A DNA stretch of 64,000 nucleotides from Gemmatimonadota bacterium (lineage in GTDB: Bacteria; Gemmatimonadota; Gemmatimonadetes; Gemmatimonadales; GWC2-71-9): positions 116,992 to 180,991 of the forward strand of contig JAZDCY010000042.1 of the NCBI GenBank assembly GCA_036679645.1, given 5' to 3'. Positions within the stretch are counted from its first letter, which is position 1; each line of letters begins with the position of its first letter. The notes under the pieces were generated by a model, which was not told the origin of the DNA, searched no databases, and was given only the letters and a program-made list of their open reading frames with translations. The translations under genes were made by a program, and so were the position numbers. Positions 484-62,466 of this stretch are shown here, one piece after another.

Positions 484-642
484 CTAGAAGATCGTGTAAA
501 TGAAAGGCGCCAGTGCCGAGCCTTGGGCGAAAACCAGCAGCGCACCCACAAGGACCATAACAACGACTATCGGGAGCAACCAGAATTTCTTGCGGGCTCT
601 CATGAAAGCCCAAAATTCACGGAACAAACTCGAATGGCTCAT
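484..642 (-). CDS. 52-aa single-TM peptide, SxtK/DUF5989-like (not in ORF track)
   Basis: Hand translation: MSHSSLFREFWAFMRARKKFWLLPIVVVMVLVGALLVFAQGSALAPFIYTIF*. Has the family-typical RKK.WL.P and APFIYT.F; lies 8 nt after the SxtJ-like gene. Confidence 0.9.
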   Translation of the reverse strand: MSHSSLFREFWAFMRARKKFWLLPIVVVMVLVGALLVFAQGSALAPFIYTIF

Positions 643-650
643 ATCACGCC

Positions 651-1052
651 CTAGAATTGACGTTCCAAGTCACTGCGACTGCCAGTCGTGCGCCCAACCC
701 AAACGGACGGCCTACCGTGATGCGTCGTCATCGGATTCCGGCCAAACAGACGCATCACACCTCCAATGGGTGCGATGAGGACGAAGTAGATGATTCCCAT
801 AAAAATGGGGGTCGTCACCTTTGAAATGGCATGCGCCAGACCCATCCACGCTCGATGCACCGGCCCCAAATGAGCTGGGATCAGTAGCCCGGCGAGGATC
901 AGAAAACCACCGATGCTCCAGAACACGAGAGCCACGGGCTCATGCCCTCTCCACCACACGATGCCACCGAGGACCAGAAACGCAATCCCCACGGTGAGTC
1001 CGAACTTGCGCCCTTCGCGAGGGCTTAGTCGAGCTGGAATTCTTCCCGCCAA
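651..1052 (-). CDS. SxtJ-family membrane protein
   Basis: RKFGLTVG, WMGLAHAISKVTTPIFMGIIYF..APIG.VMRLFGRNP, C-terminal LERQF. TTG start at 1052 follows GGAGG and overlaps the end of the carbamoyltransferase. Confidence 0.85.
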   Translation of the reverse strand: MAGRIPARLSPREGRKFGLTVGIAFLVLGGIVWWRGHEPVALVFWSIGGFLILAGLLIPAHLGPVHRAWMGLAHAISKVTTPIFMGIIYFVLIAPIGGVMRLFGRNPMTTHHGRPSVWVGRTTGSRSDLERQF

Positions 1053-2854
1053 TCTCCCTCCTCTTTCCACTCGGGCTGCGTCGCCTTCTGAAGTACGAAG
1101 GGCCCGAGCACCAGGACGTCAATATGGGTCCGCATGAAGCATCGGTACGCGTCCGCTGGTGTGCAAACGATCGGCTCTCCGCGCACGTTGAACGACGTGT
1201 TCACCACAACGCCACATCCAGTCTGGCGCTCGAACTCCTCGATCAAGTCGTGGTAGTCCGGATTGGTCTCGCGCGAGACCGTCTGGACCCGCGCAGAGTA
1301 GTCCACGTGTGTGATCGCCGGGAGGTCGGAGCGAGGAACGTTCAGTTTCTCGATACCCCAGAGCCCCTCCTGAGCATCGGTCATGCGGATCTGGCGGTCC
1401 TTCTTGACGTCGGCGACCAATAACATATACGGCGAATCGCTGTCCAGTTCAAAGTAATCGCTCACTCGCTCGCGCAGGACACTCGGAGCAAAGGGGCGAA
1501 AGCTCTCCCGAAACTTGATCTTCAGGTTCATCTGCGCCTGCATCTTGGGACTGCGGGGGTCGCCAAGGATGCTACGCGAGCCCAGAGCTCGCGGTCCAAA
1601 CTCCATGCGCCCGTTGAACCAGCCGACGATCCTCTCGCTCGCCATCGCCTCCGCCACGCAGCGATGTAGATCTGATCGCTCGCGCCGTTCGTACGCTGCG
1701 CCGACGGATTGCAAGTACTCCTCAATCTCCGTGTCCGAGAAACTCGGACCGAGGTACGCACCACGCATTCCATCACCGCTAGACGGAACCGTGCGGGGCT
1801 GTTTGCAGTGCCGGTGCCAGATGAGCTGCGCGACCCCGAGTGCGCCACCCGCATCTCCCGCCGCGGGCTGGATCCAGAGTCGCTTGAAGGGTCCCTCTCG
1901 TAGCAGCCGGCCGTTCCCCACGCAGTTGAGCGCGACACCGCCGGCGAGGCAGAGATTCTCGAGACCCGTTTCACGGTGCACCGCGCGCGCCATGCGCAGC
2001 ATGACCTCTTCGGTTACGTCCTGTATTGAACGCGCGAGATCCATTTCCCGCTGGGTCAGCTTGGATTCGGGCTTACGGGGCGGACCGCCAAAGAGATTCG
2101 AGAACGCCCCATTCGTCATGGTCAGGCCCGTGAGGTAGTTGAAGTACTTCTGGTTCAACGTGAACGAGCCGTCTTCCTTGAGATCCATCAACTCTGTGAG
2201 GATCGTCTTGACGTATCTTGGCTCACCGTACGGGGCCAGCCCCATGATTTTGTACTCACCGGAATTCACCTTGAAGCCGGTGAAGTAGGTAAACGCAGAG
2301 TAGAGCAACCCCAGTGAGTCGGGCCAGTGCAACTCCTTGAGCAGTTCGATCTCCGACCCCCGGCCAACGCCGAACGATGCCGTCGCCCACTCACCCACGC
2401 CGTCCATCGTGAGAAACGCGGCCTCCTCGAAGGGCGAGGGGAAGAACGCGGAAGCCGCGTGTGATTCATGATGCTCGGCATAGAGGATCTGCCCATCGAA
2501 AGCGAGGTCATCGCGTAACTGCCGATCGATGTACAGCTTTTCCTTGATCCAGAGCGGTCCGGCCATCAGGAACGATCGAAACCCGCTTGGTGCCACACCA
2601 AGATAAGTCTCCAGGATTCGTTCAAACTTCAGCAGCGGCTTGTCGTAGAACCCGACATATGCGAGGTCCGCAGTGGTGATTTCCCCGGCTTTCAAGCAAT
2701 AGTCGACCGCGTGCTTGGGGAACGAAGAGTCACCCTTCTTCCGCGTGAACCGCTCTTCCTGCGCCGCCGCGACGATCTCCCCATCGCGAAGCAGACATGC
2801 CGCGCTATCGTGATAGAAGGCCGAGATTCCAAGTATGTATCTGCTTGCCGTCAC
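1025..2854 (-). CDS. O-carbamoyltransferase (NodU/CmcH/SxtI family)
   Basis: ILGISAFYHDSAA, AAQEERFTRKK, EHHESHAASAF, DGVGEWAT, LAGGVALNCVGN, EFGPRALGSRS, KFRESFRPFAP, NTSFNVRGEPIV; GTG start inferred. Confidence 0.95.
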   Translation of the reverse strand: MTASRYILGISAFYHDSAACLLRDGEIVAAAQEERFTRKKGDSSFPKHAVDYCLKAGEITTADLAYVGFYDKPLLKFERILETYLGVAPSGFRSFLMAGPLWIKEKLYIDRQLRDDLAFDGQILYAEHHESHAASAFFPSPFEEAAFLTMDGVGEWATASFGVGRGSEIELLKELHWPDSLGLLYSAFTYFTGFKVNSGEYKIMGLAPYGEPRYVKTILTELMDLKEDGSFTLNQKYFNYLTGLTMTNGAFSNLFGGPPRKPESKLTQREMDLARSIQDVTEEVMLRMARAVHRETGLENLCLAGGVALNCVGNGRLLREGPFKRLWIQPAAGDAGGALGVAQLIWHRHCKQPRTVPSSGDGMRGAYLGPSFSDTEIEEYLQSVGAAYERRERSDLHRCVAEAMASERIVGWFNGRMEFGPRALGSRSILGDPRSPKMQAQMNLKIKFRESFRPFAPSVLRERVSDYFELDSDSPYMLLVADVKKDRQIRMTDAQEGLWGIEKLNVPRSDLPAITHVDYSARVQTVSRETNPDYHDLIEEFERQTGCGVVVNTSFNVRGEPIVCTPADAYRCFMRTHIDVLVLGPFVLQKATQPEWKEEGDWREEFQLD

Positions 2855-3064
2855 CGAAGCTCCCGTGCGTTCCGTGCATCCGCATTCCAATCAACTTCGC
2901 ATCGTAAACGCAAGAGATGGGCTTCCTGTGGGACCCAGCGGGGCAGACCTTGTAACGAACACGACCGCAACACGTTACGTAGGCCCAGGTCACATGCCGG
3001 ACCGAACGCTGTTGCATCGGCGCAACGGCCGTTCAGCACGATGATCGAGGTATCGCCCACAGTA

Positions 3065-3950
3065 CTAGACCAACTCGCCTAGCAACCCCGGATCGGCGAG
3101 ATCGTAGAAAATACCCGTATGTGCGATCACCATCCACTCGCCACGACTCCCGATATCCCACGTGAGGCTCATGCGGGGGCTGAACTTGCCGCGTGTCTCA
3201 TCCAATGAGTCGTTCGCCAATCCGCTGCGCGCCAGGAACTCGGCGTTGGCGGGGATACTGGTCTGGGGGAGAAATTCCCATTCGTAGCGCAGCCCCACCT
3301 GCAAGTCGAGACCCGGCGCGAGTCTCCACCTGTCGTGGAGAAGGAGTCCCAACAACTGCGTGGAGAAACTCGAAATCGGAAGCGAGCCCACGGCCTGCGT
3401 GAACACACCGCTCCGAACGTCCAGATCGACAGCGCGCGAGAAAGCGAACTCGCCCGCACTCCCGAACGCGAAAGTCTGTTTCCAGGAGCTGAAATCTCCG
3501 TCCGCACCGAGCTTGATCTGACGCGTGCCGCTCCAGAGGTGAAACGTTTCGCGGGCGCGCACGGTCGATCTCTCGAATCTGGCCGGAAGACGTGCGTCAC
3601 TCCCGAAGGCGATCGCCTCATCCACGATGCGGGTGGAAGGAATCGCGGCGGCGGCGTAGCCGCGTTGTCCGAACTCGAATCCCACGCGCGCCTCGTTTGC
3701 GAAGCCGGAGCCCCAATGCGACGTGAGTGCCGCAGTCGCGGCGAGATCGCTCCCCTCCAGGGTCGTCCCCGGCGTCCACGTCCCGTCAGGTCCCACATCC
3801 ACACCGTCCCCGGCGACCGTCGCGAACTGCCCGCGCACGCTGAGCTGTTGCCCCTTGGCGAGGCGCCAGTCGAACCGGCCATAAACGGTGGCCGCGTCGG
3901 TTTTGCGGATTTCGGTGACACGCGGTCGGAGGGCCGGTGCCAGCGTTCCG
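3065..3950 (-). pseudogene. Internal beta-barrel fragment of an Oar-like TonB-dependent receptor
   Basis: Amphipathic beta-strand pattern (NEARVGF, QIKLGAD, LHDRWRLAPGLDLQVGLRYEWE, FSPRMSLTWD, GIFYD); no plug domain or C-terminus; ends abruptly. Confidence 0.75.
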
Positions 3951-4248: not shown

Positions 4249-5259
4249 TCAACGGTCGTCGACAATTGATCTTACGGTTGACGCGAGCCACCGCGTGAAG
4301 GCTCCTGTATCACCTACGTAAAGATGAGACCCCTCAGCGCATCGCCATGAATCTCCGTTCAACTCAGCATGCACATCACTCAAGAACGGCGCGTCAAGCA
4401 CTTGCTGAGCAACATCCCAATACTCTGTCTGTGGATACCGTTCGTTCTCGATGCTCCTGCGCTCTCCACAAGTAGGCAACATCACGAACAGGACAGTTCC
4501 ACCACGCCTCTGAATTGCATCGACACTCGACTGCACTCTTCGCAGAATGCTGTCACGCTGGAAGGGGCTTGCCTGTCTTCCGTCCAGCCGGAATTGCTCA
4601 TAGTCGTCAGAACCGAGAGGGTGTTCCCGATAGTCCCTTGCCAACGGCTGGAATCGGTCATCACGCGTCGTGAAGTCAGGAGGATCTGGCATCACTCGCA
4701 GAACCGCTCCACCTACGAGACTTCGCCAATTCAGCGTCGGATGGCGCAGCGGTATTGCCGAAGGAAGCCATTGCCGGATCCACGTCTCCAAGCGGCGAGA
4801 CGGACTCAAACGATACTCATCGTACGCCGCGGCTGCTTCAAGGAATATGCTCGGGTTCTGATCAACATTGAAGACAAAGAAGGGCGCAAAACCTACGACG
4901 GCAATCCCTGAGAATGACCTATCCTGCGCAACATGCTCCAACACCGGTACCGGTGAAGTGGCGACGAGCGCCAGGTTGTACACTGGTCGCTCAGGCCAGA
5001 CTTCTTCCCACACTATTGGATCTATCGCCGCCTGTGCTCTAGACGAGCCAAGAATCACCACTGACTTCGTGGATACCCGCGCGCGCATCGCCGCCCAGAC
5101 TGAAGCGCTGTTCGGAACCCCAGGCGTAAAGCCGCGTGCACGCCATCCTACAGTCCACAACGAAACCCCAACTCCGGCAACCACCACAGCAGCGAGCCAC
5201 ATTGGGAGCCACTGCATACGAGGCAGTCTGGATCTAGAATTGGAAGTAGATGAACGCAC
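4249..5259 (-). CDS. Membrane-anchored SGNH/DltD/AlgX-like protein, partner of the upstream MBOAT
   Basis: N-terminal TM, VVILGSSRAQAAIDP (Ser block), YNLAL, C-terminal EGSHL (D/ExxH-like); overlaps the MBOAT 3' end. Confidence 0.7.
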   Translation of the reverse strand: MRSSTSNSRSRLPRMQWLPMWLAAVVVAGVGVSLWTVGWRARGFTPGVPNSASVWAAMRARVSTKSVVILGSSRAQAAIDPIVWEEVWPERPVYNLALVATSPVPVLEHVAQDRSFSGIAVVGFAPFFVFNVDQNPSIFLEAAAAYDEYRLSPSRRLETWIRQWLPSAIPLRHPTLNWRSLVGGAVLRVMPDPPDFTTRDDRFQPLARDYREHPLGSDDYEQFRLDGRQASPFQRDSILRRVQSSVDAIQRRGGTVLFVMLPTCGERRSIENERYPQTEYWDVAQQVLDAPFLSDVHAELNGDSWRCAEGSHLYVGDTGAFTRWLASTVRSIVDDR

Positions 5260-6652
5260 GGTCAGTCACCGGGGTAACAAGGATTGCAAACAGCATGATC
5301 GCTATCAGGCATACCTTAGCCAACAATGGAAATCGCAGCCATTTCTCCTCAAGGCTAGAATCTCTCATCCACCAGTGCCAGAGAAGCAGCGCTGCGGTAA
5401 CGGCGAATACAGTCAGCACACTATCCTCTCCAATCACGATGTTCCTGTCACCTGCTATGCCTGCCATTGATGACACGATTCTCACAGCGCTCCTCCAATC
5501 TGGCGCGCGAAAAAACACCCATGTGAAACACACCGCTACGTAGGTGATGAGTATGAGTCCGAACATCGCCCATTTCTTTGTTGTAAGCGCACAAATGTAA
5601 GACATGCTCTTCACACGACGCTCGACCATGAGGAATGCACCGTGCAGCCCCCCCCATACGACAAATCTCCACGCAGCACCATGCCACAGGCCACCCAGCA
5701 GCATCGTCACCAACAGGTTGACCTGCGTGCGCCGCGCGCCCAACCGATTGCCGCCCAATGGCACATACAGGTAATCTCGTAGCCACGAAGAAAGCGATAT
5801 GTGCCATCTCCGCCAAAAATCTGAGAAACCCATGGCTGCGTACGGATATCGGAAGTTGTCAGGCAACGCGAAGCCCAACATCAAACCAACTCCAATGGCA
5901 CACGTGGAATAGCCTGCGAAGTCGAAGAAGATCTGCGCTGAGAACGCCAATGTTCCAACCCAGGCATCAACGAAGCCAGCATCCACAGCATTCGAATAGA
6001 CATGATCGGCGATCGGTGCCATCATGCTATCAGCAAGAACCACCTTCTGAAATAGCCCGACTAAGAATAAAGTGGCACCCCACGCGAATTCGTCCTTGTC
6101 TGCTCTCCGGACTGTCGTACACTGTGGCAGGAAATGTGACGCGCGGACAATTGGTCCCGCGACCAATTGCGGGAAGAACGAGACGAACAGCGCGAAATCG
6201 ACGAACCTCGGCCAAGGGTCTAGCTTACCGCGGTACACATCGATCGTATAAGACAACGTCTGAAACGTGTAGAATGAGATGCCAACGGGCAGGATGATAC
6301 CGAGGTCCACCGGCTCGTATTCGACACCGAGTAGTCGGAGAAACGCGTTGAAGTTGCCGAGGAGGAAATCTCCATATTTGAATGCTGCCAAGAGACCGAG
6401 ATTCGTGAAGAGGCTCCAGGACAACAAGAGTTTCCTCTGGTGGTCGGTTGCTGCGGGCATCCGTTTGGCGAGGTGCCAGTCCACTAGTGTTGAGAATGCC
6501 AGTAATAGGACGAATGGTGGATTCCAAGCGCCGTAGAAGATGTATGAAGCCAGAACGAGGAATGTCTTCTTCGCGCGCCATGAAGCGCGAGACGTGTGCA
6601 TGAGAAGCACGGCGGCGAAGAACAGCAGGAATGTGATGGAATTGAAAACCAT
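5234..6652 (-). CDS. MBOAT O-acyltransferase (AlgI/PatA-like)
   Basis: MVFNS, LPVGISFYTFQTLSYTIDVYR, FFPQLVAGPI, DFAGYS, FWRRWHISLSSWLRDYLY, GGLWHGA, C-terminal FIYFQF. Confidence 0.95.
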   Translation of the reverse strand: MVFNSITFLLFFAAVLLMHTSRASWRAKKTFLVLASYIFYGAWNPPFVLLLAFSTLVDWHLAKRMPAATDHQRKLLLSWSLFTNLGLLAAFKYGDFLLGNFNAFLRLLGVEYEPVDLGIILPVGISFYTFQTLSYTIDVYRGKLDPWPRFVDFALFVSFFPQLVAGPIVRASHFLPQCTTVRRADKDEFAWGATLFLVGLFQKVVLADSMMAPIADHVYSNAVDAGFVDAWVGTLAFSAQIFFDFAGYSTCAIGVGLMLGFALPDNFRYPYAAMGFSDFWRRWHISLSSWLRDYLYVPLGGNRLGARRTQVNLLVTMLLGGLWHGAAWRFVVWGGLHGAFLMVERRVKSMSYICALTTKKWAMFGLILITYVAVCFTWVFFRAPDWRSAVRIVSSMAGIAGDRNIVIGEDSVLTVFAVTAALLLWHWWMRDSSLEEKWLRFPLLAKVCLIAIMLFAILVTPVTDRAFIYFQF

Positions 6653-7099: not shown

Positions 7100-7300
7100 C
7101 TATTGTGGGAAACAGAAGTACGCTACGGACATTGGCGAGGGCGCACCCGCGAACGGCGCGCCAGCTGTGTAGATCACCGTTCCACGTATCGATCCGGCAC
7201 TTATGCTCTGGGCTTCGAGCGGCGTTACGGCGCCGATGAGAGCGAGGGCTACGATGTAGTGCCGCAGTGCTCCTCCAACAGATGGAAACACAGGTTTGAC
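7100..7300 (-). pseudogene. N-terminal fragment (signal peptide and start of carboxypeptidase-regulatory-like domain) of a TonB-dependent receptor
   Basis: YIVALALIGAVTPLEAQSISAGSIRGTVIYTAGAPFAGA is the typical AQ...G.I.GTV.D..G.P..GA start; frame then lost. Confidence 0.6.
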
Positions 7301-7744
7301 GTGAATGAAGCAACGGACGGGATGCAATCCTGGAGCCCCGTACCAGCGGCCCGGCAGAACCTCCACAGTATCACACGTAAACGCATGTCATGCAAGGGGA
7401 TGCGTGCGTGACCACAGTCACGGCACTTACGTGCCCGACCCAGTCGTACCAATGATGTGGTATGATCGCTACAATATCCCCAGTACCTAGAGGCATGGGA
7501 TCCGTAGGACATAGCTGAGCCGCGATCCGTTGCACACCTCGTCCACCGCCCAGTGTCCCGTGCCGAAAAACCTGAAGCACCTACGACCAGAGCATGCATC
7601 TTGCGAGTGCGTGAGCGCTATCATGGTCACTCCGAATAGAACGCGCGCGCGTGAGAAACGGACGACACGCTCGGTAACGGTAGTCCCCGAGAGCCTCGTT
7701 GCGGCTCGCCACCCGAGTTCCTCCGTGCGCCCGGTCCGAATACG

Positions 7745-53027: not shown

Positions 53028-54458
53028 ATGCTCTTCAACTCACTGGTGTTTTGCGCGTTCTTCATCGCGACTTACACCGTCTATTTCTGCCTGATGCGAC
53101 GGTATCGGGCTCAGAACGGGCTACTGCTCGCCGCGAGCTACCTCTTCTACGGTTGGTGGGACTGGCGGTTTCTCGGCCTTATTCTGCTCTCGACCTTAAT
53201 CGACTACGTCTTAGCCGGATCGATCGGTCGTCTCGACCCGGACTCAGCAACCGAACAGCGGCGGCGAAAGTTGCTCGTCACGGCATCGATCGCGACGAAT
53301 CTCGGCATCATTGGTTTCTTCAAGTACTTCAACTTCTTCGCAGATAGCGCGGTTGACGTGATGAGGGCGATCGGATTCGCACCAGATCATGTCACGCTCA
53401 ACATCATCCTACCGGTCGGAATCAGTTTCTACACGTTTCAATCGCTGAGCTATACGATCGACGTCTACCGCGGCAAGTTAAAACCGCACCCAAACTTTCT
53501 CAACTTTGCGCTCTTCGTTGCTTTCTTTCCTCAGCTCGTCGCGGGACCAATTGAGCGCGCAGCCAAGCTACTTCCTCAGTTCGCGGCCGCGAGGGTGATC
53601 ACCCCTGAGCGTGTCTGGACCGGGCTCTATCTCATCCTTTGGGGGTACTTCGAGAAGGTTGTGGTCGCCGACAACGTCGGCAGGATCGCAGACGAAGTAT
53701 TCAATAACTACGAGAAGTATCAGGGTCTCGATATCCTGATTGGCGTCTTCGCTTTTGCTCTACAGATTCTCGGGGACTTCTCCGGCTACTCAAACATCGC
53801 GCGTGGGCTGGCCCGGATTATGGGTTTTGACCTCATGGTCAACTTCCGTCTCCCGTACTTCGCGACCTCGCCGGCTGATTTCTGGCACCGTTGGCACATC
53901 TCCCTATCGACCTGGCTGCGAGACTATCTGTACATTTCACTCGGCGGCAATCGATACGGCCAGCTCATCACCTACCGAAACCTGTGCGCGACGATGCTGC
54001 TGGGCGGACTCTGGCATGGCGCTGCCTGGAACTTCGTGGCGTGGGGTGCCTACCACGGTGCGGGTCTCGCAGGTCACCGAGCTTTCTCGCAGTGGCGCGC
54101 GACCGGGGGCAAATCACGGTACGGAAGGGTTTCTGAGTGGTCAACAATCATTTTGATGTTCGCCTTCACCCTCGGTGGCTGGCTGCTATTTCGGAGCACG
54201 AGCCTCGCGCAGGTTGTCGGTATGGTTTCCTCACTCGGAGTCCGCCCGTCCAGCATGAGCTTCACCTGGACCGCCAATATCGTGTTTTACGCCTGGCCTT
54301 TGTTCGTAATCCAGCTTGTCCAGCGTCGCACGGGCGATTTGCTTGTTCTGACTCGGTTGCCAATGCCCATCACGGCTATCGTATTCGCCGGAATACTCGC
54401 TATGCTGGCGGTCTTCGGCTCGCGTGAACCGATGGAGTTCATATATTTCCAGTTTTGA
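53028..54458 (+). CDS. MBOAT O-acyltransferase (AlgI/PatA-like)
   Basis: MLFNS, LPVGISFYTFQ, FFPQLVAGPIER, DFSGYS, FWHRWHISLSTW, GGLWHGA, FIYFQF. Confidence 0.95.
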   Translation: MLFNSLVFCAFFIATYTVYFCLMRRYRAQNGLLLAASYLFYGWWDWRFLGLILLSTLIDYVLAGSIGRLDPDSATEQRRRKLLVTASIATNLGIIGFFKYFNFFADSAVDVMRAIGFAPDHVTLNIILPVGISFYTFQSLSYTIDVYRGKLKPHPNFLNFALFVAFFPQLVAGPIERAAKLLPQFAAARVITPERVWTGLYLILWGYFEKVVVADNVGRIADEVFNNYEKYQGLDILIGVFAFALQILGDFSGYSNIARGLARIMGFDLMVNFRLPYFATSPADFWHRWHISLSTWLRDYLYISLGGNRYGQLITYRNLCATMLLGGLWHGAAWNFVAWGAYHGAGLAGHRAFSQWRATGGKSRYGRVSEWSTIILMFAFTLGGWLLFRSTSLAQVVGMVSSLGVRPSSMSFTWTANIVFYAWPLFVIQLVQRRTGDLLVLTRLPMPITAIVFAGILAMLAVFGSREPMEFIYFQF

Positions 54459-54467
54459 GGTAGGCCT

Positions 54468-55544
54468 TTGGTCAACTCTGACAACGTCATTGCCGAGGTG
54501 CCACACCGCGACCAGGCCGCGATAGGGGGCATAGGCATTGACCAACCGCCGCTCGAGACGCTCCCGCGCGAGATCATTCGATCGGTCTCATGGTCGCAGG
54601 TCGCGTGGACAATTGCTGCCACACTCTTCGTCTTGGGAGCGCTCAATTTCCTCGCAGGTGCGTATCTCTCACGCTACACGTCTAACCAAGGCTACTGGCT
54701 GATCAAGCACAAATGGGAGCTTCTCGAGAGGGTAGACCACCCCATCGACTGGTTAATCATCGGGGATTCCTCTTGCAACCAGGGCATCGACACGGAGACC
54801 TGGGATCGAGCGCTGGGCGGACGTTCGCTTAATCTGTGTACCATAGGGGACTTGCTGCTCCTCAATGGTGTCTGGATGCTAGCCGCGCTGTCAGAGCGCA
54901 TCGGAAGTCCACCGAACGTTCTCGTAGTCCATGTACACGACATGTGGCACAGGCGTCCTACACCAGAGCTTCTAGGACGCATTCCAGTGCGAGGTGTGTG
55001 GGGTAAGGGAAATACGTCAGTGGTGCTCACGCTCTCGGAGACGGCTCGGGAGCTATTGTCACGGTACGCGCCGCTTGTTAGTCAGAGCTCCGCCTTGCGC
55101 AATTCGCTGCGCAACCCAAGCACGCTGTTCGAGACGAAATTCGTCCTCGGCGACAATGGCTACATGCGCGAGGTGGAGGCGAATCCGCAAACAGTCGAGC
55201 GTGACGCGGCGGCGCATCTGCGGGCATTGGAGACACAAGCCTTCAACATCTCGGCCGAGAATCGGGCCGCACTTGAGGAACTCGGGGCGCTCGCCGATGC
55301 CCACGAGGTTGATATCTATTTGACGTCAGCGCCAATTTTCGAGGGTCTCCTCGCGTCTCCGGCGTTTCGCGAACACGTGGCACCGATGCAGGCGGAATTT
55401 CGTGTGTGGGATGCCAGTAATCCGCGGCTCCATTATATTGACGAATTCCAAGCGTTCCCGAAGGAATCGATGCAGAATGCTGATCACCTGATACATGACG
55501 CGGCGCAAGTCTACACCCGCCGCCTCGCAGAAATCGTTCGATAG
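54468..55544 (+). CDS. Membrane-anchored SGNH/DltD-like protein
   Basis: N-terminal TM, LIIGDSSCNQG, SLNLC, C-terminal NADHL. Confidence 0.7.
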   Translation: MVNSDNVIAEVPHRDQAAIGGIGIDQPPLETLPREIIRSVSWSQVAWTIAATLFVLGALNFLAGAYLSRYTSNQGYWLIKHKWELLERVDHPIDWLIIGDSSCNQGIDTETWDRALGGRSLNLCTIGDLLLLNGVWMLAALSERIGSPPNVLVVHVHDMWHRRPTPELLGRIPVRGVWGKGNTSVVLTLSETARELLSRYAPLVSQSSALRNSLRNPSTLFETKFVLGDNGYMREVEANPQTVERDAAAHLRALETQAFNISAENRAALEELGALADAHEVDIYLTSAPIFEGLLASPAFREHVAPMQAEFRVWDASNPRLHYIDEFQAFPKESMQNADHLIHDAAQVYTRRLAEIVR

Positions 55545-55765
55545 CAAGTAGTGTTGGCGAATATGCTCCCATCCTCTGAACCCCTCAAAGATGGTCTTAT
55601 TCACTGTCCAAAGAAATCGGGTGCTCTATACATGTACGGTAGGAAATCACTGGAATTTCCCGCCGAAGGGAGCCTTTCGCCGAGGTACACCTCGCGGCTG
55701 CCGTTCCAGAATGTCCGACGCGTGGCGTTCCCCGCGCTACCATTTCCGACCAGCAATTAACTCGC

Positions 55766-57205
55766 GTGCTCTTCAACTCGCTACCGTTTGCCGCGTTCCT
55801 ACCTGTTGTATTCGTCCTCTACTGGGCGGCACAACGTTCCGACCTGCGCGTGCAAAACATCCTCATACTCGTCGCGAGTTACGTCTTCTACGGGTGGTGG
55901 GACTACCGTTTCCTCGCGCTCATTGTCCTCTCCTCGACCATCGACTATGTCGTTGGACGCGCCCTCTCGCGCTCCACCGGCGCCGCTCGGCGGCGCACCC
56001 TGCTGTCGTTCAGCGTCCTCACAAACCTCGGCCTGCTGGGGACGTTCAAGTATTTCAACTTCTTCGTCGACTCGCTTCGCGATCTCTTCGTTGCAGTGGG
56101 ATTACCGTCGCCTGGTTGGACTCTCGACGTAGTCCTCCCAGTAGGTATCAGCTTTTATACCTTCCAGACGCTTTCCTATACAATAGACGTGTACCGGGGA
56201 CGGCTTTCCGCAACCGACGATCCGATCGCCTTCTTCGCGTTCGTCAGCTTCTTTCCCCAACTCGTCGCCGGTCCGATCGAGCGCGCCGAACACCTCCTGC
56301 CGCAATTTCTCGCGCCGCGTCGGTTCGACTCCACCGCAGCTTCGGACGGAGCCCGCCAGATGCTCTGGGGGCTTTTCAAGAAGATCGTCGTCGCGGACAA
56401 CCTCGCGCTGTACGTACAGAACGCGTTCAGCCAGGCAGGAAGCGCTGGTCGCATCGATTTGATCGCGGGCGTCGTGTTCTTCGCGATACAGATATACTGC
56501 GACTTCTCCGGCTACTCGGACATCGCCATTGGAAGTGCGCGGCTCTTCGGATTCTCCCTACGACGTAACTTCGCGTACCCGTACTTCGCCCGGGACATCG
56601 CGGAGTTCTGGCGCCGTTGGCACATCTCGCTTTCTACGTGGTTTCGCGACTACGTCTACATCCCACTGGGCGGTAGCAAGAGCAACACACGCAGGCGTCT
56701 CATCAACGTGATGATCACATTTGGACTGAGCGGCCTCTGGCACGGCGCGAATTGGACGTTCGTCATCTGGGGACTCCTGAACGCGCTGTACTACGTCCCG
56801 CTCATGGTGAGCGGGACGCACCGAGCGAACGTCGGGCCGGTGGCGCCGGGGAAGCTCCTCCCCAGTGCTCGGGAGGTTCTGGCCATGACCATGACGTTTC
56901 TCCTCACGCTGGTAGCATGGGTGTTCTTTCGCGCCGCCTCTCTCCATGACGCAATGGACTATTTCGCATACCTCGCGAGACCAACCCCTACAATCGACGT
57001 GATTCCGCTGGCCGGGCTGCTCAGGGGAGCGCTCTTGAGCGCCGCTATCGTCCTACCGGAGTGGCTGCACCGAGAGAAAGAGCACGCCATGGCGGTGGAT
57101 GGTCTTCCGGTTGCGGGGCGCTGGGTGCTGTACCTGGCGGTGGGACTCAGCATACTCGTCTTGGGCAACTTCGGTGAAGTTCAATTCATCTACTTCCAGT
57201 TCTAG
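55766..57205 (+). CDS. MBOAT O-acyltransferase (AlgI/PatA-like)
   Basis: LPVGISFYTFQ, FFPQLVAGPIER, IYCDFSGYSD, FWRRWHISLSTW, SGLWHGANW, FIYFQF. Confidence 0.95.
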   Translation: MLFNSLPFAAFLPVVFVLYWAAQRSDLRVQNILILVASYVFYGWWDYRFLALIVLSSTIDYVVGRALSRSTGAARRRTLLSFSVLTNLGLLGTFKYFNFFVDSLRDLFVAVGLPSPGWTLDVVLPVGISFYTFQTLSYTIDVYRGRLSATDDPIAFFAFVSFFPQLVAGPIERAEHLLPQFLAPRRFDSTAASDGARQMLWGLFKKIVVADNLALYVQNAFSQAGSAGRIDLIAGVVFFAIQIYCDFSGYSDIAIGSARLFGFSLRRNFAYPYFARDIAEFWRRWHISLSTWFRDYVYIPLGGSKSNTRRRLINVMITFGLSGLWHGANWTFVIWGLLNALYYVPLMVSGTHRANVGPVAPGKLLPSAREVLAMTMTFLLTLVAWVFFRAASLHDAMDYFAYLARPTPTIDVIPLAGLLRGALLSAAIVLPEWLHREKEHAMAVDGLPVAGRWVLYLAVGLSILVLGNFGEVQFIYFQF

Positions 57206-57262
57206 CGAGCCATTGGCTCCTCGCGCTCCTTCCGATCGCCGTATGGCGGCACGCGCCAAGGC

Positions 57263-58258
57263 ATGAGCCCATGGCAATTCGGGCGGCGTGCAGTCGCCTT
57301 TGCGAGCCTTCTCGCGACGGCGTACCTAGCACTGCTGTTCGTCGTGGTCAATTCCCCGAGGATCCGGTTCCCTGAGACGAACCTCTGGACGAATCAGACC
57401 CGTAAGAGCATGCTCGGCAAGCCGACGGTGCTCATGGTTCGCGAGCTGGGTGTAGCGCGTGATCTCGATATTCTCTTCACCGGCTCCTCGCACGCCTACC
57501 GGACCTTCGACCCTCGTTTTTTTGACACCAAGAATCTCCGTACGTTCAACATGGGGACCACCGGCCAGACACCGGTGAATACGTACTTCCTAATGCGGGA
57601 CCATTTCGATCAGGTGCGCGCACCGCTGGTCGTGATCGAGACCTACCCCGACATCTTCCGACTAGATGGAACGTTTTCGTCTATCGACCTGATCCAAAAC
57701 ACAGCGTGGTCTTGGAGTACCGTGCGGATGGTCCTAGCCACGAAATCTCTGCCGGCGCTGAATGCCCTGCTATTTGACGCGCTGGACCTGCACCGCGTCC
57801 CGGTCGATCAAATTGAACCTCGGCTCGACCCAGGCGACACGTACGTCGGTCGGGGCTATGTCGAGAAGAGATCCGACGTAACCTGGGAGCAACGGGCGCC
57901 AACCCGATCGATAGCAATCAACCATACACAGCTTCGCTATTTGCGACGGACTATCGAGTGGTTGAGGCGGCGAGGAAGCCGCGTGCTCTGCATCGTCCAG
58001 CCGATCCCCGAGCCGACCCGGCGGGCAATCAAAAACTACGCGGAGGTGTCGGAGACGATTAGAGCGACTGTAACCCTCGCAGGGGCAGAGTACGTGGATT
58101 TCAACGGCATGATCGACCTGACTCCAGGTACCGATTTCTATGACTACCACCACATGCGGCAGTCTGCCGTTGAGAAGTTCCTCCCAGTGTTCTACGCCGA
58201 GCTCGTGGCACGGGGCCTGATCCCTGAGCCGCGGGAGGCGGCCGGTACGACCCCGTAA
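57263..58258 (+). CDS. Membrane-anchored SGNH/DltD-like protein
   Basis: N-terminal TM, ILFTGSSHAYRTFDP, FNMGTTGQ, C-terminal FYDYHHM (DxxH). Confidence 0.75.
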   Translation: MSPWQFGRRAVAFASLLATAYLALLFVVVNSPRIRFPETNLWTNQTRKSMLGKPTVLMVRELGVARDLDILFTGSSHAYRTFDPRFFDTKNLRTFNMGTTGQTPVNTYFLMRDHFDQVRAPLVVIETYPDIFRLDGTFSSIDLIQNTAWSWSTVRMVLATKSLPALNALLFDALDLHRVPVDQIEPRLDPGDTYVGRGYVEKRSDVTWEQRAPTRSIAINHTQLRYLRRTIEWLRRRGSRVLCIVQPIPEPTRRAIKNYAEVSETIRATVTLAGAEYVDFNGMIDLTPGTDFYDYHHMRQSAVEKFLPVFYAELVARGLIPEPREAAGTTP

Positions 58259-60042: not shown

Positions 60043-60084
60043 TTAGCGGTGCGCAGTAAGGGGTGAGCGGTAAGCGGTGAGCCT
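60043..60084. repeat. Degenerate 7-nt tandem array (TRAGCGG-like, 6 units)
   Basis: ttagcgg tgcgcag taagggg tgagcgg taagcgg tgagcct, between yraN and recA. Confidence 0.6.
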
Positions 60085-60152
60085 GACTGTCGGGCCTAAG
60101 AATCGCCGGCTGACCGGCGCCGCCGGCAACCGAATATATACCGAAGCCAGTC

Positions 60153-60554
60153 TCACCGCCAGCCTGCCTTGAACGCGTCTTCGACATGCACCACCCGCAG
60201 GTGCCCCCGGCGTATGCGCTCGATCCCAATCACGTCGAATCTGTAGACATCGTGCGGCCGGCGGTGCCGATCTATCCAGGCCTGGGCCACTCGAGCAATG
60301 TCTCGCTGCTTGCTCCGAGTGACGGCCTCCAGCGGGCTCCCGAACGTACGGCTCAGCCGAGTCTTCACCTCCACAAACGCCACGATCGTCCCGAGCCGAG
60401 CGACGAGATCGATCTCCAGCCGGCCCATCGTGAAGCGATGGTCGAGGATCTGCCAGCCGCGCCGCCGGAGAAACTCCTTGGCCAGCTCCTCGCCGTCGAC
60501 GCCCAAACGGTGACGCCGGTCCTTCCAGCTTGCAGGGTCCGTGCGGATGCGCAT
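60153..60554 (-). CDS. yraN: YraN-family (UPF0102) endonuclease-like protein
   Basis: LG..GEELA..FL, EIDLVA, FVEVKTR, P.EAVT..KQ, RFDVI. Confidence 0.92.
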   Translation of the reverse strand: MRIRTDPASWKDRRHRLGVDGEELAKEFLRRRGWQILDHRFTMGRLEIDLVARLGTIVAFVEVKTRLSRTFGSPLEAVTRSKQRDIARVAQAWIDRHRRPHDVYRFDVIGIERIRRGHLRVVHVEDAFKAGWR

Positions 60555-60635
60555 GGCGCACAATAGGCTGTGGTGTGCGGGCGAGCGTCATCGAAACAGC
60601 TCAGTTTGGTATCGCCTTCTTGCAGACGGGTCTCT

Positions 60636-60740
60636 CGTGCAGCGTGCAGCGTGCAGCGTGCAGCGTGCAGCGTGCAGCGTGCAGCGTGCAGCGTGCAGCG
60701 TGCAGCGTGCAGCGTGCAGCGTGCAGCGTGCAGCGTGCAG
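60636..60740. repeat. Perfect heptamer tandem repeat (CGTGCAG)x15
   Basis: 105 nt counted directly. Confidence 0.95.
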
Positions 60741-60758
60741 AATGTAACGGAAACACAC

Positions 60759-60891
60759 GGCGTGCCGCGCAGACCGACAGGTCCCGGAGCGCGCGTCAGC
60801 TCGCTGCCCCAGCCCGCGATAGCAAAGGACCCAACGAGCTGCAGGGCGCGGAGGGACCTGTTGGCTCAAGCGGCACGCGGACTGTCGAGCG
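60759..60891. repeat. 133-bp palindromic element, copy 1
   Basis: Matches 62542-62674 with 5 substitutions by eye; nested inverted repeats. Confidence 0.92.
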
Positions 60892-60991
60892 TGCAGAGGC
60901 CGGTCGGCGCGGGGCGCGGATGGACGGAAGTCAAGACGGGCCCGGCGTTCCAACCGCCGAGCCCGTAGACCATCTAAGGATTGGGGGGATG

Positions 60992-61723
60992 CTACGCGTT
61001 CTCGATGTCGAGCCCTTTGCGGCGCCGTCGCAATGCAGCCCCGCCAATGCCCAGGAGACCCGAGCCCAGGAGCACCATCGTGACTGGTTCCGGCACGACT
61101 GTGCATGGCGGATAGTCCCCGGCCCCGCCCGTGTCACACTTGAGCGACTGGTTCCCGTTCGGCCCGATCTGCTGTGAGTGCCAGCGTAGTTGCGTATCGC
61201 CGGTCAGCGCAAACTGGCCAGTTGTGGTGAACTTCAGCACTACCATATAGGGGTCAGCATCCGTCGAGCACGTGCTCCAGTGTGTCCCGCCAAATGCATC
61301 CATACAACCGACAATTCCGTCCGCACCCGAGGTCCCTGCGGACCCGTCGATTCTCACTCCGGCTAGGGTCTTGATGTCGTTCGACGGCGCAGACCAGAAA
61401 CTCGAGATATCCGTCCCGCCGCCAACGGCACCAGTCTGGTTGTACCATACGCCCGCGAGGCCGACGGTGCCAACGTTATTCCACACGTTGTAAAGACCGA
61501 TTGCGGTCATCGTGTGCTTGACGCCGAACGTGCCTTGGAGGTTGCGCACGCGAATGATCAGCCCATTGCCGCCGTCGACCACTTCCACCTGAACACTGGC
61601 GCAGACGCCGAGGAGCGGGCCGCCTATACAGTATGGGTTCCATCCGGACGGCAGTGCGTGCGCGGGTGTTGGTGCCGCCGCTACCGCCGCCAAGGCAACC
61701 AACCCGCCGAAGAGTTTTCTCAT
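60992..61723 (-). CDS. PEP-CTERM sorting domain protein
   Basis: Signal peptide (MRKLFGGLVALAAVAAAPTPAHA); Gly/Ser/Thr-rich body with six Cys; C-terminal VPEPVTMVLLGSGLLGIGGAALRRRRK. Confidence 0.93.
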   Translation of the reverse strand: MRKLFGGLVALAAVAAAPTPAHALPSGWNPYCIGGPLLGVCASVQVEVVDGGNGLIIRVRNLQGTFGVKHTMTAIGLYNVWNNVGTVGLAGVWYNQTGAVGGGTDISSFWSAPSNDIKTLAGVRIDGSAGTSGADGIVGCMDAFGGTHWSTCSTDADPYMVVLKFTTTGQFALTGDTQLRWHSQQIGPNGNQSLKCDTGGAGDYPPCTVVPEPVTMVLLGSGLLGIGGAALRRRRKGLDIENA

Positions 61724-62238
61724 GAACCTTCCCCTTTACCACCCCGAAGATGTCTTATCGCCGCGTACGCGCCGACCGCGGACGCGACCGTGAAGGTCAC
61801 TCCCAGCAGCGATGTCTTCACAATGGCCTTTTTCACACCAAGCGCGGCAGGCCCCTCGACGGAGCCCAACGCCATCGGGACGTCGGTCAGGAACAGCAAG
61901 TACGCCGCTGCGAGAAACACCGACCACATCCCGAGCACTACCGCAACCGCAACCAATAAACGCCGACTACCCAACGCCAACCCCGCCCCGAGCAGCCCCG
62001 CAAACCCGATCGCGATCAGCGCCAGCCCACTGAAACTCGCCGCGATCGTCCCAAACTCCCATTCCGGCGTCCCAAGGTGCATGGGGTACCAGACCAGGGC
62101 AAAGTCCCCCACTCCCACAACCAGCAGTACGAACCCAATCCACCCGATCCAACGCCACCCCGTTTCGGGGTCTTCCGCTAGCGGCCGAACTCGCTTCCGA
62201 CCGGCCTTCTCCTCAACCAGGACCTTCCGCTCAGCCAT
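61720..62238 (-). CDS. Four-TM membrane protein of unknown function
   Basis: Four hydrophobic segments; WYPMHLGTPEWEFGT loop; G-rich RBS; ATGA overlap with the PEP-CTERM gene. Confidence 0.8.
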   Translation of the reverse strand: MAERKVLVEEKAGRKRVRPLAEDPETGWRWIGWIGFVLLVVGVGDFALVWYPMHLGTPEWEFGTIAASFSGLALIAIGFAGLLGAGLALGSRRLLVAVAVVLGMWSVFLAAAYLLFLTDVPMALGSVEGPAALGVKKAIVKTSLLGVTFTVASAVGAYAAIRHLRGGKGEGS

Positions 62239-62466
62239 CGTCCCCCCTCGAACACACACTCATTCCCAGCTCCCAACCACCGCGAGACGGAGGGACGGTC
62301 CTTGGCAAAGGTGAGCTATTGCACATTTCGGGCCCTCGAGCGCTCAGCGCAGACACGCGCAAGTATTTTGTTCATAATGACTTACTGAGATGGGGCGAGC
62401 ATCCAACACCATCCGCCCACGCCGAATCAGCCCAACACATATGGCTCGCTTCCAACATGAGGACAC

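Follow-up and report, generated by a model that had tools for sequence, protein, structure and literature searches.

How could a carbamoyl group activated in the cytoplasm be handed to a glycan outside it? This question is raised by a 64,000-nucleotide (nt) stretch of the Gemmatimonadota contig JAZDCY010000042.1 (the window; G000:C38:116992-180991 in our numbering), at one end of which lie a carbamoyltransferase gene, an SxtJ-like gene and the gene for a 52-amino-acid (aa) SxtK/DUF5989 peptide. An earlier reading of the window from its letters alone (the sequence-only reading) had proposed that the Tyr in the tail of the peptide carries the carbamoyl group to an SGNH protein. Our comparisons favor such a Tyr-O-carbamoyl relay to SGNH enzymes, working without a membrane-bound O-acyltransferase (MBOAT), with a probability of roughly 0.6. 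The features concerned, in window coordinates, are these.

1025..2854, minus strand: SxtI-type O-carbamoyltransferase (TobZ/CmcH/NodU fold), cytoplasmic; 609 aa, GTG start (from Pfam, PDB sequence matches and a fold model)
2534..2638, minus strand: amphipathic two-helix segment of the transferase, residues 73-107 (from hydrophobic moment, model helices and comparison of transferases)
651..1052, minus strand: SxtJ family membrane protein, proposed adaptor; 133 aa (from PF19588, conservation and AlphaFold helices of a J-K read-through protein)
484..642, minus strand: SxtK/DUF5989 membrane microprotein, proposed Tyr carrier; 52 aa (from PF19451, hydropathy and charge bias)
487..504, minus strand: FIYTIF hexapeptide, peptide residues 47-52, which fits the FXYXXF acyl-shuttle motif; Tyr49 codon at 496-498

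The three genes are tightly coupled, as had been claimed: all on one strand, with a 28-nt overlap between the transferase and SxtJ genes and the peptide gene beginning 8 nt past the SxtJ stop. SxtJ likely starts with the TTG at 1052, which has GAGGAGG ahead of it. The transferase scored 316 bits with Carbam_trans_N and 252.5 bits with Carbam_trans_C, SxtJ 41.9 bits with PF19588 (cut-off 24.4; a 139-aa frame was scored) and the peptide 90.2 bits with PF19451, DUF5989 (cut-off 27). The basic RARKK patch, single hydrophobic stretch and FIYTIF end ascribed to the peptide are all present, and the three MBOATs of the window do end in FIYFQF. The window and its left flank annotate as glycosyltransferase, flippase and exosortase genes of a long exosortase-type polysaccharide cluster; no other saxitoxin gene is annotated there, although sxt genes were not searched for across the genome. 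In a promoter and terminator scan, signals were no commoner than chance.

We asked how unusual the tail of the peptide is. The FXYXXF motif and its Tyr chemistry are described for DltX and PatA, and Tyr acylation is shown for PatA, in PMC12148441; according to PMC13653941, the DltX tail binds DltD. Of the 943 frames of the window (stop to stop, at least 40 aa), four end in YxxF: those of the peptide and of the three MBOATs. Genome-wide, an end of the form [FWLY][IVLT]YxxF was found in 5 of 58,377 frames: these four and one 47-aa frame. To obtain a set of tails that was not biased by the motif, we took the best 80 of 508 loci by their transferase and searched them for peptides with a profile from which the final ten residues had been removed. 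Of 73 complete peptides (window copy counted), 72 had Tyr at -4 together with Phe at -1, and the single exception was a frameshifted second copy. With all loci pooled and an N-terminal-only profile, Tyr was at -4 in 207 of 208 distinct peptides, a count that is partly circular because the pool holds 80 metagenome loci chosen by a motif-containing pattern as well as loci chosen by the full Pfam model. Tyr was also kept in 146 of 148 parsed tails from 150 representatives at 50% identity, where one of the two misses was a parsing artefact.

In an alignment of 142 peptides (A5), position 49 was always Tyr. Position 13 was Phe in 126 and Tyr in 15, and position 20 was Trp, Phe or Tyr; Phe and Tyr are thus exchanged at positions 13 and 20, never at 49. 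The invariant Tyr at -4 and the terminal Phe expected by the sequence-only reading are thus supported. We also searched 101 genomes of Planctomycetota, the phylum of genome G152, of which 52 had the peptide. Tyr was present in all 52 tails and was followed by Thr in 29, Pro in 12, Ala in 6 and other residues in 5. Because the neighboring Thr is replaced in 23 of the 52, the Tyr is the sole constant hydroxyl of the tail.

The peptide has an amphipathic basic N-terminal helix, a hydrophobic stretch (KD19 2.85 at residue 21) and the tail APFIYTIF. A distance of 32 residues between Trp21 and the C terminus is shared by 141 of 142 peptides. Lys and Arg average 3.9 before the membrane helix and 0.06 after it, and the tail, of fixed length, is therefore predicted to face outward. 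Both this charge bias and the helix count of the fusion proteins described below would place the motif on the outer face, after the membrane helix. We found neither a variable Tyr nor a predicted cytoplasmic C terminus without SGNH association, the sequence-testable outcomes that the earlier reading had named as speaking against it.

DUF5989 peptides form at least 7,996 clusters at 90% identity, and in the phylum of the host 53 of 151 genomes have one. The peptide gene may lie upstream of the transferase or be duplicated (L002:7581-7739, L073:7018-7173 and L104); L073 has an intact and a frameshifted copy. At seven loci (L260, L261, L262, L264, L265, L268 and L254), a DUF5989 peptide scores well and neither a transferase nor an SxtJ gene lies within about 4.5 kb.

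If the tail carries a carbamoyl group, which enzyme would take it up? A total of 146 genes flank the cassettes, and Pfam was run on the 128 that are no longer than 520 aa. Lipase_GDSL_2 was found in 26 of the 128 and MBOAT in 1. These SGNH proteins carry an anchor at the N terminus; Arg, Ser, Asp and His are invariant in them, the last three being present in 30 of 30 aligned. With held-out profiles, the proportion of SGNH genes fell with distance from the cassette, from 24 of 101 within 0.5 kb through 9 of 76, 8 of 98 and 2 of 129 to 1 of 116; at 3-8 kb it was 3 of 245. In plasmid and metagenome loci, none of which were used for training, 15 of 68 cassette sides had an SGNH gene. An SGNH gene adjoins the cassette in Sinorhizobium, Ensifer, Methylosinus and one Rhodobacteraceae plasmid, and Sinorhizobium meliloti 1021 has all four genes, SM_b20469-SM_b20472 (L085:7800-12002, on pSymB). 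In PMC7268258, SM_b20472 bears the label arcB2 (ornithine carbamoyltransferase), yet the protein is an O-carbamoyltransferase of the SxtI type and its gene belongs to an SGNH/SxtJ/SxtK cassette. The transposon sequencing data of that paper, consulted for SM_b20469-72, list arcB2 as a symbiosis gene; as this transferase gene retained 59 insertions against 44.6 expected and a neighbor scores similarly, we did not use them as support.

The association was also seen across whole genomes. In the 151 genomes of the host phylum, we used an SGNH profile built from cassette neighbors, with 13 candidates scored per genome. At E≤1e-30, the SGNH profile matched in 33 of 53 genomes with the peptide and in 6 of 98 without it. 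Split further, matches were found in 13 of 16 genomes with peptide and MBOAT, 20 of 37 with the peptide only, 1 of 21 with MBOAT only and 5 of 77 with neither. SGNH co-occurrence, which the earlier reading had proposed to score, thus tracks the peptide and not the MBOATs in this phylum and is enriched beside the cassette. Because the profile was trained on cassettes, 13 candidates were scored per genome and related genomes are not independent, these counts show co-inheritance and are not a probability. A transferase match was present in 51 of the 53 peptide genomes. None of 13 loci with transferases of other types had an SGNH, SxtJ or peptide gene within about 3 kb, and the one SxtI-type transferase with no adjacent peptide had SGNH genes on both sides. 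BLAST clustering of the neighbors detected no conserved fourth gene, a method blind to the SGNH proteins because these are about 20% identical. A link to crocagin was considered because the SGNH profile matched a single PDB entry, CgnD (8A2N), over nearly its full length; it was dropped, since CgnJ and CgnK are listed in PMC10070186 as methyltransferase and nuclease-inhibitor-like.

The strongest evidence for a relay between peptide and SGNH protein is a set of fusions in Planctomycetota.

Fusion loci L220-L224 and L226: G158:C61:17588-19216 and five more Planctomycetota genomes; SxtJ of 69-116 aa, C-terminal half only

In these six genomes, a single protein of 515-542 aa consists of an N-terminal anchor, an SGNH domain, three linker helices and the DUF5989 peptide, and its gene directly follows those for the transferase and a short SxtJ. 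The proteins are 33-55% identical to one another and end in APFIYTLF after a basic helix and a membrane helix. The four that were scanned score 41.7-44.4 bits with DUF5989, and Pfam confirmed both domains in them. With the N terminus of the anchor inside and an odd number of linker helices, the tail and the SGNH domain are predicted to lie on one face of the membrane. Linker and peptide occur without the SGNH domain at L232 and L233. Four other long-frame matches (L225, L227, L212 and L239) turned out to be short genes of the usual kind that lie within long open frames, and were discarded. Among the 120 best longer homologues there were no SGNH or MBOAT fusions; the fusions present were of SxtJ with the peptide, of the peptide with the transferase, or chance read-throughs, and of 14 inspected, 13 had no signs of a conserved family; the genuine SGNH fusions score lower and came from the genome search.

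More distant peptides also lie beside SGNH genes. At one locus of G198, such a peptide takes the place of DltX beside a tail-less DltB-like MBOAT, a carrier protein, an AMP-ligase and an SGNH protein. This set (G198:C112; L256:2746-6140 and L226:133-1842) includes a 399-aa MBOAT, an SGNH protein bearing TPR and a 53-aa peptide ending in PFLYAVF, which has no Pfam match at E 0.01; its relative at L230 scores 28.9 bits with DUF5989. Second, shorter DUF5989-like peptides ending in YNIF or similar were found beside SGNH genes at L220:4370-4498, L223:1911-2039, L224:5800-5952, L229 and L230, some with no transferase nearby.

Which SGNH protein would serve the peptide in this genome? The sequence-only reading had taken the nearest one, 4249-5259, which proved instead to be the partner of an MBOAT. 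Its gene stands immediately behind that of MBOAT 5234-6652, and the protein scores 4.8 bits with the cassette SGNH profile. BLAST at E<1e-5 found no relative of it in the surroundings of 165 cassette loci; in 5 of 20 MBOAT loci, a relative is the gene right behind the MBOAT. Outside the window, 12-49 kb to the left of the peptide, are five cassette-type SGNH genes, none of them beside an MBOAT. For two SGNH proteins of this genome, orthologues (43-59%) adjoin cassettes in at least 8 other loci. The likely partners are the genes at G000:C38:100057-105181, and also those at 93589 and 66649. Co-folding of the SGNH protein at C38:101413 with the peptide, a test proposed in the earlier reading, scored 0.32 against 0.02 for the best control, although one of three runs gave 0.02 (the others 0.32 and 0.36); contacts agreed in at least 13%, with a partner pLDDT (predicted local distance difference test) of at least 53. 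Of 157 solved pairs, 116 reached the mark that we used, as did 2 of 215 mismatched pairs; those that reached it at 0.60 or below were 18 solved pairs and both mismatches. Unless a pair is likely beforehand, a pass of this kind is wrong more often than right, and the model weakly supports this pairing.

The MBOAT and SGNH pair at 4249-6652, of lower GC, sits as if inserted as a unit between two pieces of a broken TonB-dependent receptor gene (3053-3943 and 7142-7321, minus strand), which are 82-84% identical to an intact copy at G000:C38:113072-116119. Two further MBOAT genes lie at 53028-58258 on the plus strand, each followed by an open reading frame (ORF) with a GDS/GSS motif and no Pfam match (54468-55544 and 57263-58258), so that one cluster holds three MBOAT-partner pairs. 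At 60043-62259 on the minus strand, four small ORFs lie between ftsK and recA; one has a weak PEP-CTERM match, and three have no Pfam family.

We then considered the enzyme that would load the Tyr. The transferase matched NovN, VtdB, GdmN and TobZ in the PDB, and its model (pLDDT 86) has their full-length fold, with TM-scores of 0.77-0.83 and 30-32% identity. It falls short of the NodU equivalog NF041651 (130.7 bits; cut-off 1000). His15, His128, His132, Asp151, Asp334 and Lys447, some of which we take to be metal ligands, are kept in 92 of 92 transferases, and His15 and Lys447 align with His14 and Lys443 of TobZ. TobZ, NovN, GdmN, VtdB and NodU act on soluble small molecules and are not known to have membrane partners. 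The transferase of the cassette has the same conserved His and Lys and no predicted membrane helix, but it differs from these enzymes by an extra amphipathic segment. This segment, residues 73-107 (model helices 73-86 and 90-107), has the strongest helical hydrophobic moment in the protein. Its length and motif are shared by all 15 peptide-linked transferases compared, and it differs in 13 of 13 of other types; it is a possible contact with the membrane or with SxtJ and SxtK. In Acidobacteriota, a second carbamoyltransferase-like gene of about 500 aa lies just upstream (L013, L015, L025, L033, L057, L060, L066, L069 and L079), and seven such proteins that we aligned lack both His15 and the amphipathic segment. 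Degenerate transferases also occur at L228 and L231.

SxtJ begins with two membrane helices, which are followed by a long helix with a kink and by a basic tail whose last residues are RQF. In some operons it is reduced to about 70 residues, leaving a hydrophobic helix, kinked and basic at its ends, that may be re-entrant. The sequence-only reading had made SxtJ a membrane adaptor that replaces an MBOAT. Because SxtJ is shrunken in some operons and has no conserved catalytic-type residue, it is at most an adaptor; a catalytic stand-in for the MBOAT is unsupported. A model of an SxtJ-peptide read-through protein (pLDDT 81, predicted TM-score 0.53, tail pLDDT 52-57) gave a best fold-search Z of 5.9 for a helix pair, which is at noise level. 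PDB sequence searches with the peptide and SxtJ profiles gave nothing significant, and a search of a phage collection gave no match.

These components recall several known systems. Like DltX with DltB and DltD (PMC12148441, PMC13653941), the cassette has a single-pass microprotein of about 50 aa, a C-terminal FXYXXF motif with an invariant Tyr, and an anchored SGNH protein with Ser, His and Asp. Unlike Dlt, it has no MBOAT, carrier protein or ligase; a TobZ-type transferase with SxtJ stands in the place of the donor, the SxtK tail is hydrophobic with a fixed Ala-Pro ahead of it, and the group proposed to be carried is a carbamoyl. The loading of the Tyr by an MBOAT, which characterizes shuttles of the DltX and PatA type, is thus missing from the cassette. 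PatA/PatB and AlgI-type MBOAT-SGNH pairs (PMC12148441) have the same terminal motif after a peripheral helix and the last membrane helix, but there the motif is fused to the MBOAT, whereas in SxtK it is free or fused to the SGNH protein. Saxitoxin clusters (PMC2679770, PMC2684587) share the SxtJ and peptide Pfam families, gene sizes, the order I-J-K and a GDSL/SGNH gene, and differ from this locus in its polysaccharide-cluster context; the cyanobacterial proteins were not compared directly. SxtJ and SxtK are listed as unknown, acting "in conjunction" with SxtI, in PMC2679770, and PMC2684587 and PMC10157211 give the same labels for SxtJ, SxtK and SxtL. The consulted portions of a 2026 preprint and of PMC5132012 add no mechanism, and a literature search with little coverage of subscription journals found no paper linking SxtK/DUF5989 to a Tyr shuttle or proposing the relay.

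The three genes probably form a membrane module, and the relay would run as follows. As is known for its family, and consistent with its fold and conserved residues, the cytoplasmic transferase would form carbamoyl-AMP from ATP and carbamoyl phosphate. SxtJ and the amphipathic segment would hold the transferase at the membrane next to SxtK. The hydrophobic tail might then dip into a groove thinned by the kinked helix of SxtJ, so that Tyr49 reaches the transfer site and is carbamoylated; this is the weakest step. The tail would pass the carbamoyl group to the Ser of a membrane-anchored SGNH protein, as motif, co-occurrence and fusion suggest, and the acceptor is probably a surface glycan made by the surrounding exosortase-type polysaccharide cluster.

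Several observations weigh against this relay. The route from a cytoplasmic active site to a Tyr predicted to face outward appears weak: SxtJ has no His, Ser, Cys or Tyr conserved at 90% or more, and because the transferase keeps its own His15 and SxtJ has no catalytic-type residue, the acceptor must enter the transferase site. At least 16 positions of the peptide are conserved above 90%, and the invariance of the tail alone is not special because the whole peptide is highly conserved. The motif is shared with AlgI-type tails, as the earlier reading had supposed, but the likeness appears to end with it: hhalign of the peptide profile with 24 MBOAT C termini matched 7 columns at 33% probability. 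Of cassette-adjacent genes, 77 of 101 are not SGNH, and 10 of the 24 that are lie on the opposite strand. No SGNH match was found in 20 of 53 peptide genomes at E≤1e-30 (3 of 53 at 1e-10), and the SGNH family is not exclusive to cassettes, with 2 of 20 genes downstream of MBOATs scoring 69 and 93 bits. Of 19 further peptide loci, 7 have no transferase within about 4.5 kb. A single event probably gave rise to all six fusions, and MBOATs are present in 40 of 52 Planctomycetota peptide genomes, including all six with fusions, compared with 17 of 49 others. Finally, the published saxitoxin model (PMC2679770) proposes that SxtL is a decarbamoylase.

Three other explanations have to be set against the relay. 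SxtJ and SxtK might merely anchor the transferase at the inner face, where a lipid-linked sugar would be carbamoylated directly; the SGNH protein would then edit outside and the tail would be a docking peptide. This needs no trans-membrane step, and other members of the carbamoyltransferase family act straight on their acceptor. It would also suit the amphipathic segment, the conservation of the whole peptide, the proposed decarbamoylase role of SxtL and the description of Pseudomonas aeruginosa WapO in PMC8005017 as a putative lipopolysaccharide-core transferase. However, it leaves unexplained why the Tyr is never Phe, why the peptide ends exactly in FxYxxF and why a fusion is built with tail and SGNH domain predicted on one face, and the 13 transferases of other types have no peptide or SGNH gene nearby; we consider it unlikely. 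Lyngbya wollei, with a truncated sxtI, no sxtL and no carbamoylated toxins (PMC3037375), fits direct carbamoylation and the relay alike.

The gap between a transferase inside and a tail predicted to be outside would be closed by a hidden carrier: the transferase would load a lipid, a small alcohol or another residue, and the tail would take the group second-hand or position the SGNH protein. Since neighbor clustering gave no further conserved gene, a lipid carrier is possible. The loci nonetheless offer no candidate carrier or second enzyme, and SxtJ has no conserved nucleophile, so this explanation is more doubtful still. The peptide could instead carry an acyl group as DltX does and receive it from an MBOAT encoded at another locus, with the transferase acting independently on the same polysaccharide. 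The tail-less MBOAT beside the G198 peptide, a G205 peptide that precedes an MBOAT and an SGNH gene, the three MBOATs of the window and the frequency of MBOATs in Planctomycetota peptide genomes all point this way. Against it, 37 of 53 host-phylum peptide genomes have no MBOAT match while nearly all have the transferase, an MBOAT occurs in only 3 of 165 cassette loci, and the window MBOATs and 20 of 20 sampled MBOATs bear their own tail. This explanation is very improbable.

If the Tyr-O-carbamoyl relay is correct, two widespread families with no assigned function, SxtJ and SxtK, would gain one, and the Tyr-shuttle principle would reach beyond MBOATs and acyl groups. The Planctomycetota fusion would cut the system to three proteins. 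We would give even odds to the broader possibility that bacteria of many phyla carbamoylate glycans outside the cytoplasm by such an MBOAT-free relay, in which a soluble, SxtJ-docked ATP-dependent transferase loads a Tyr microprotein within the membrane, that a large family of "orphan" membrane-anchored SGNH proteins are carbamoyltransferases, that SxtL is a transferase and not a decarbamoylase, and that the Tyr shuttle is portable between unrelated donor enzymes. The assignments of SxtJ, SxtK and SxtL would thereby be re-opened.

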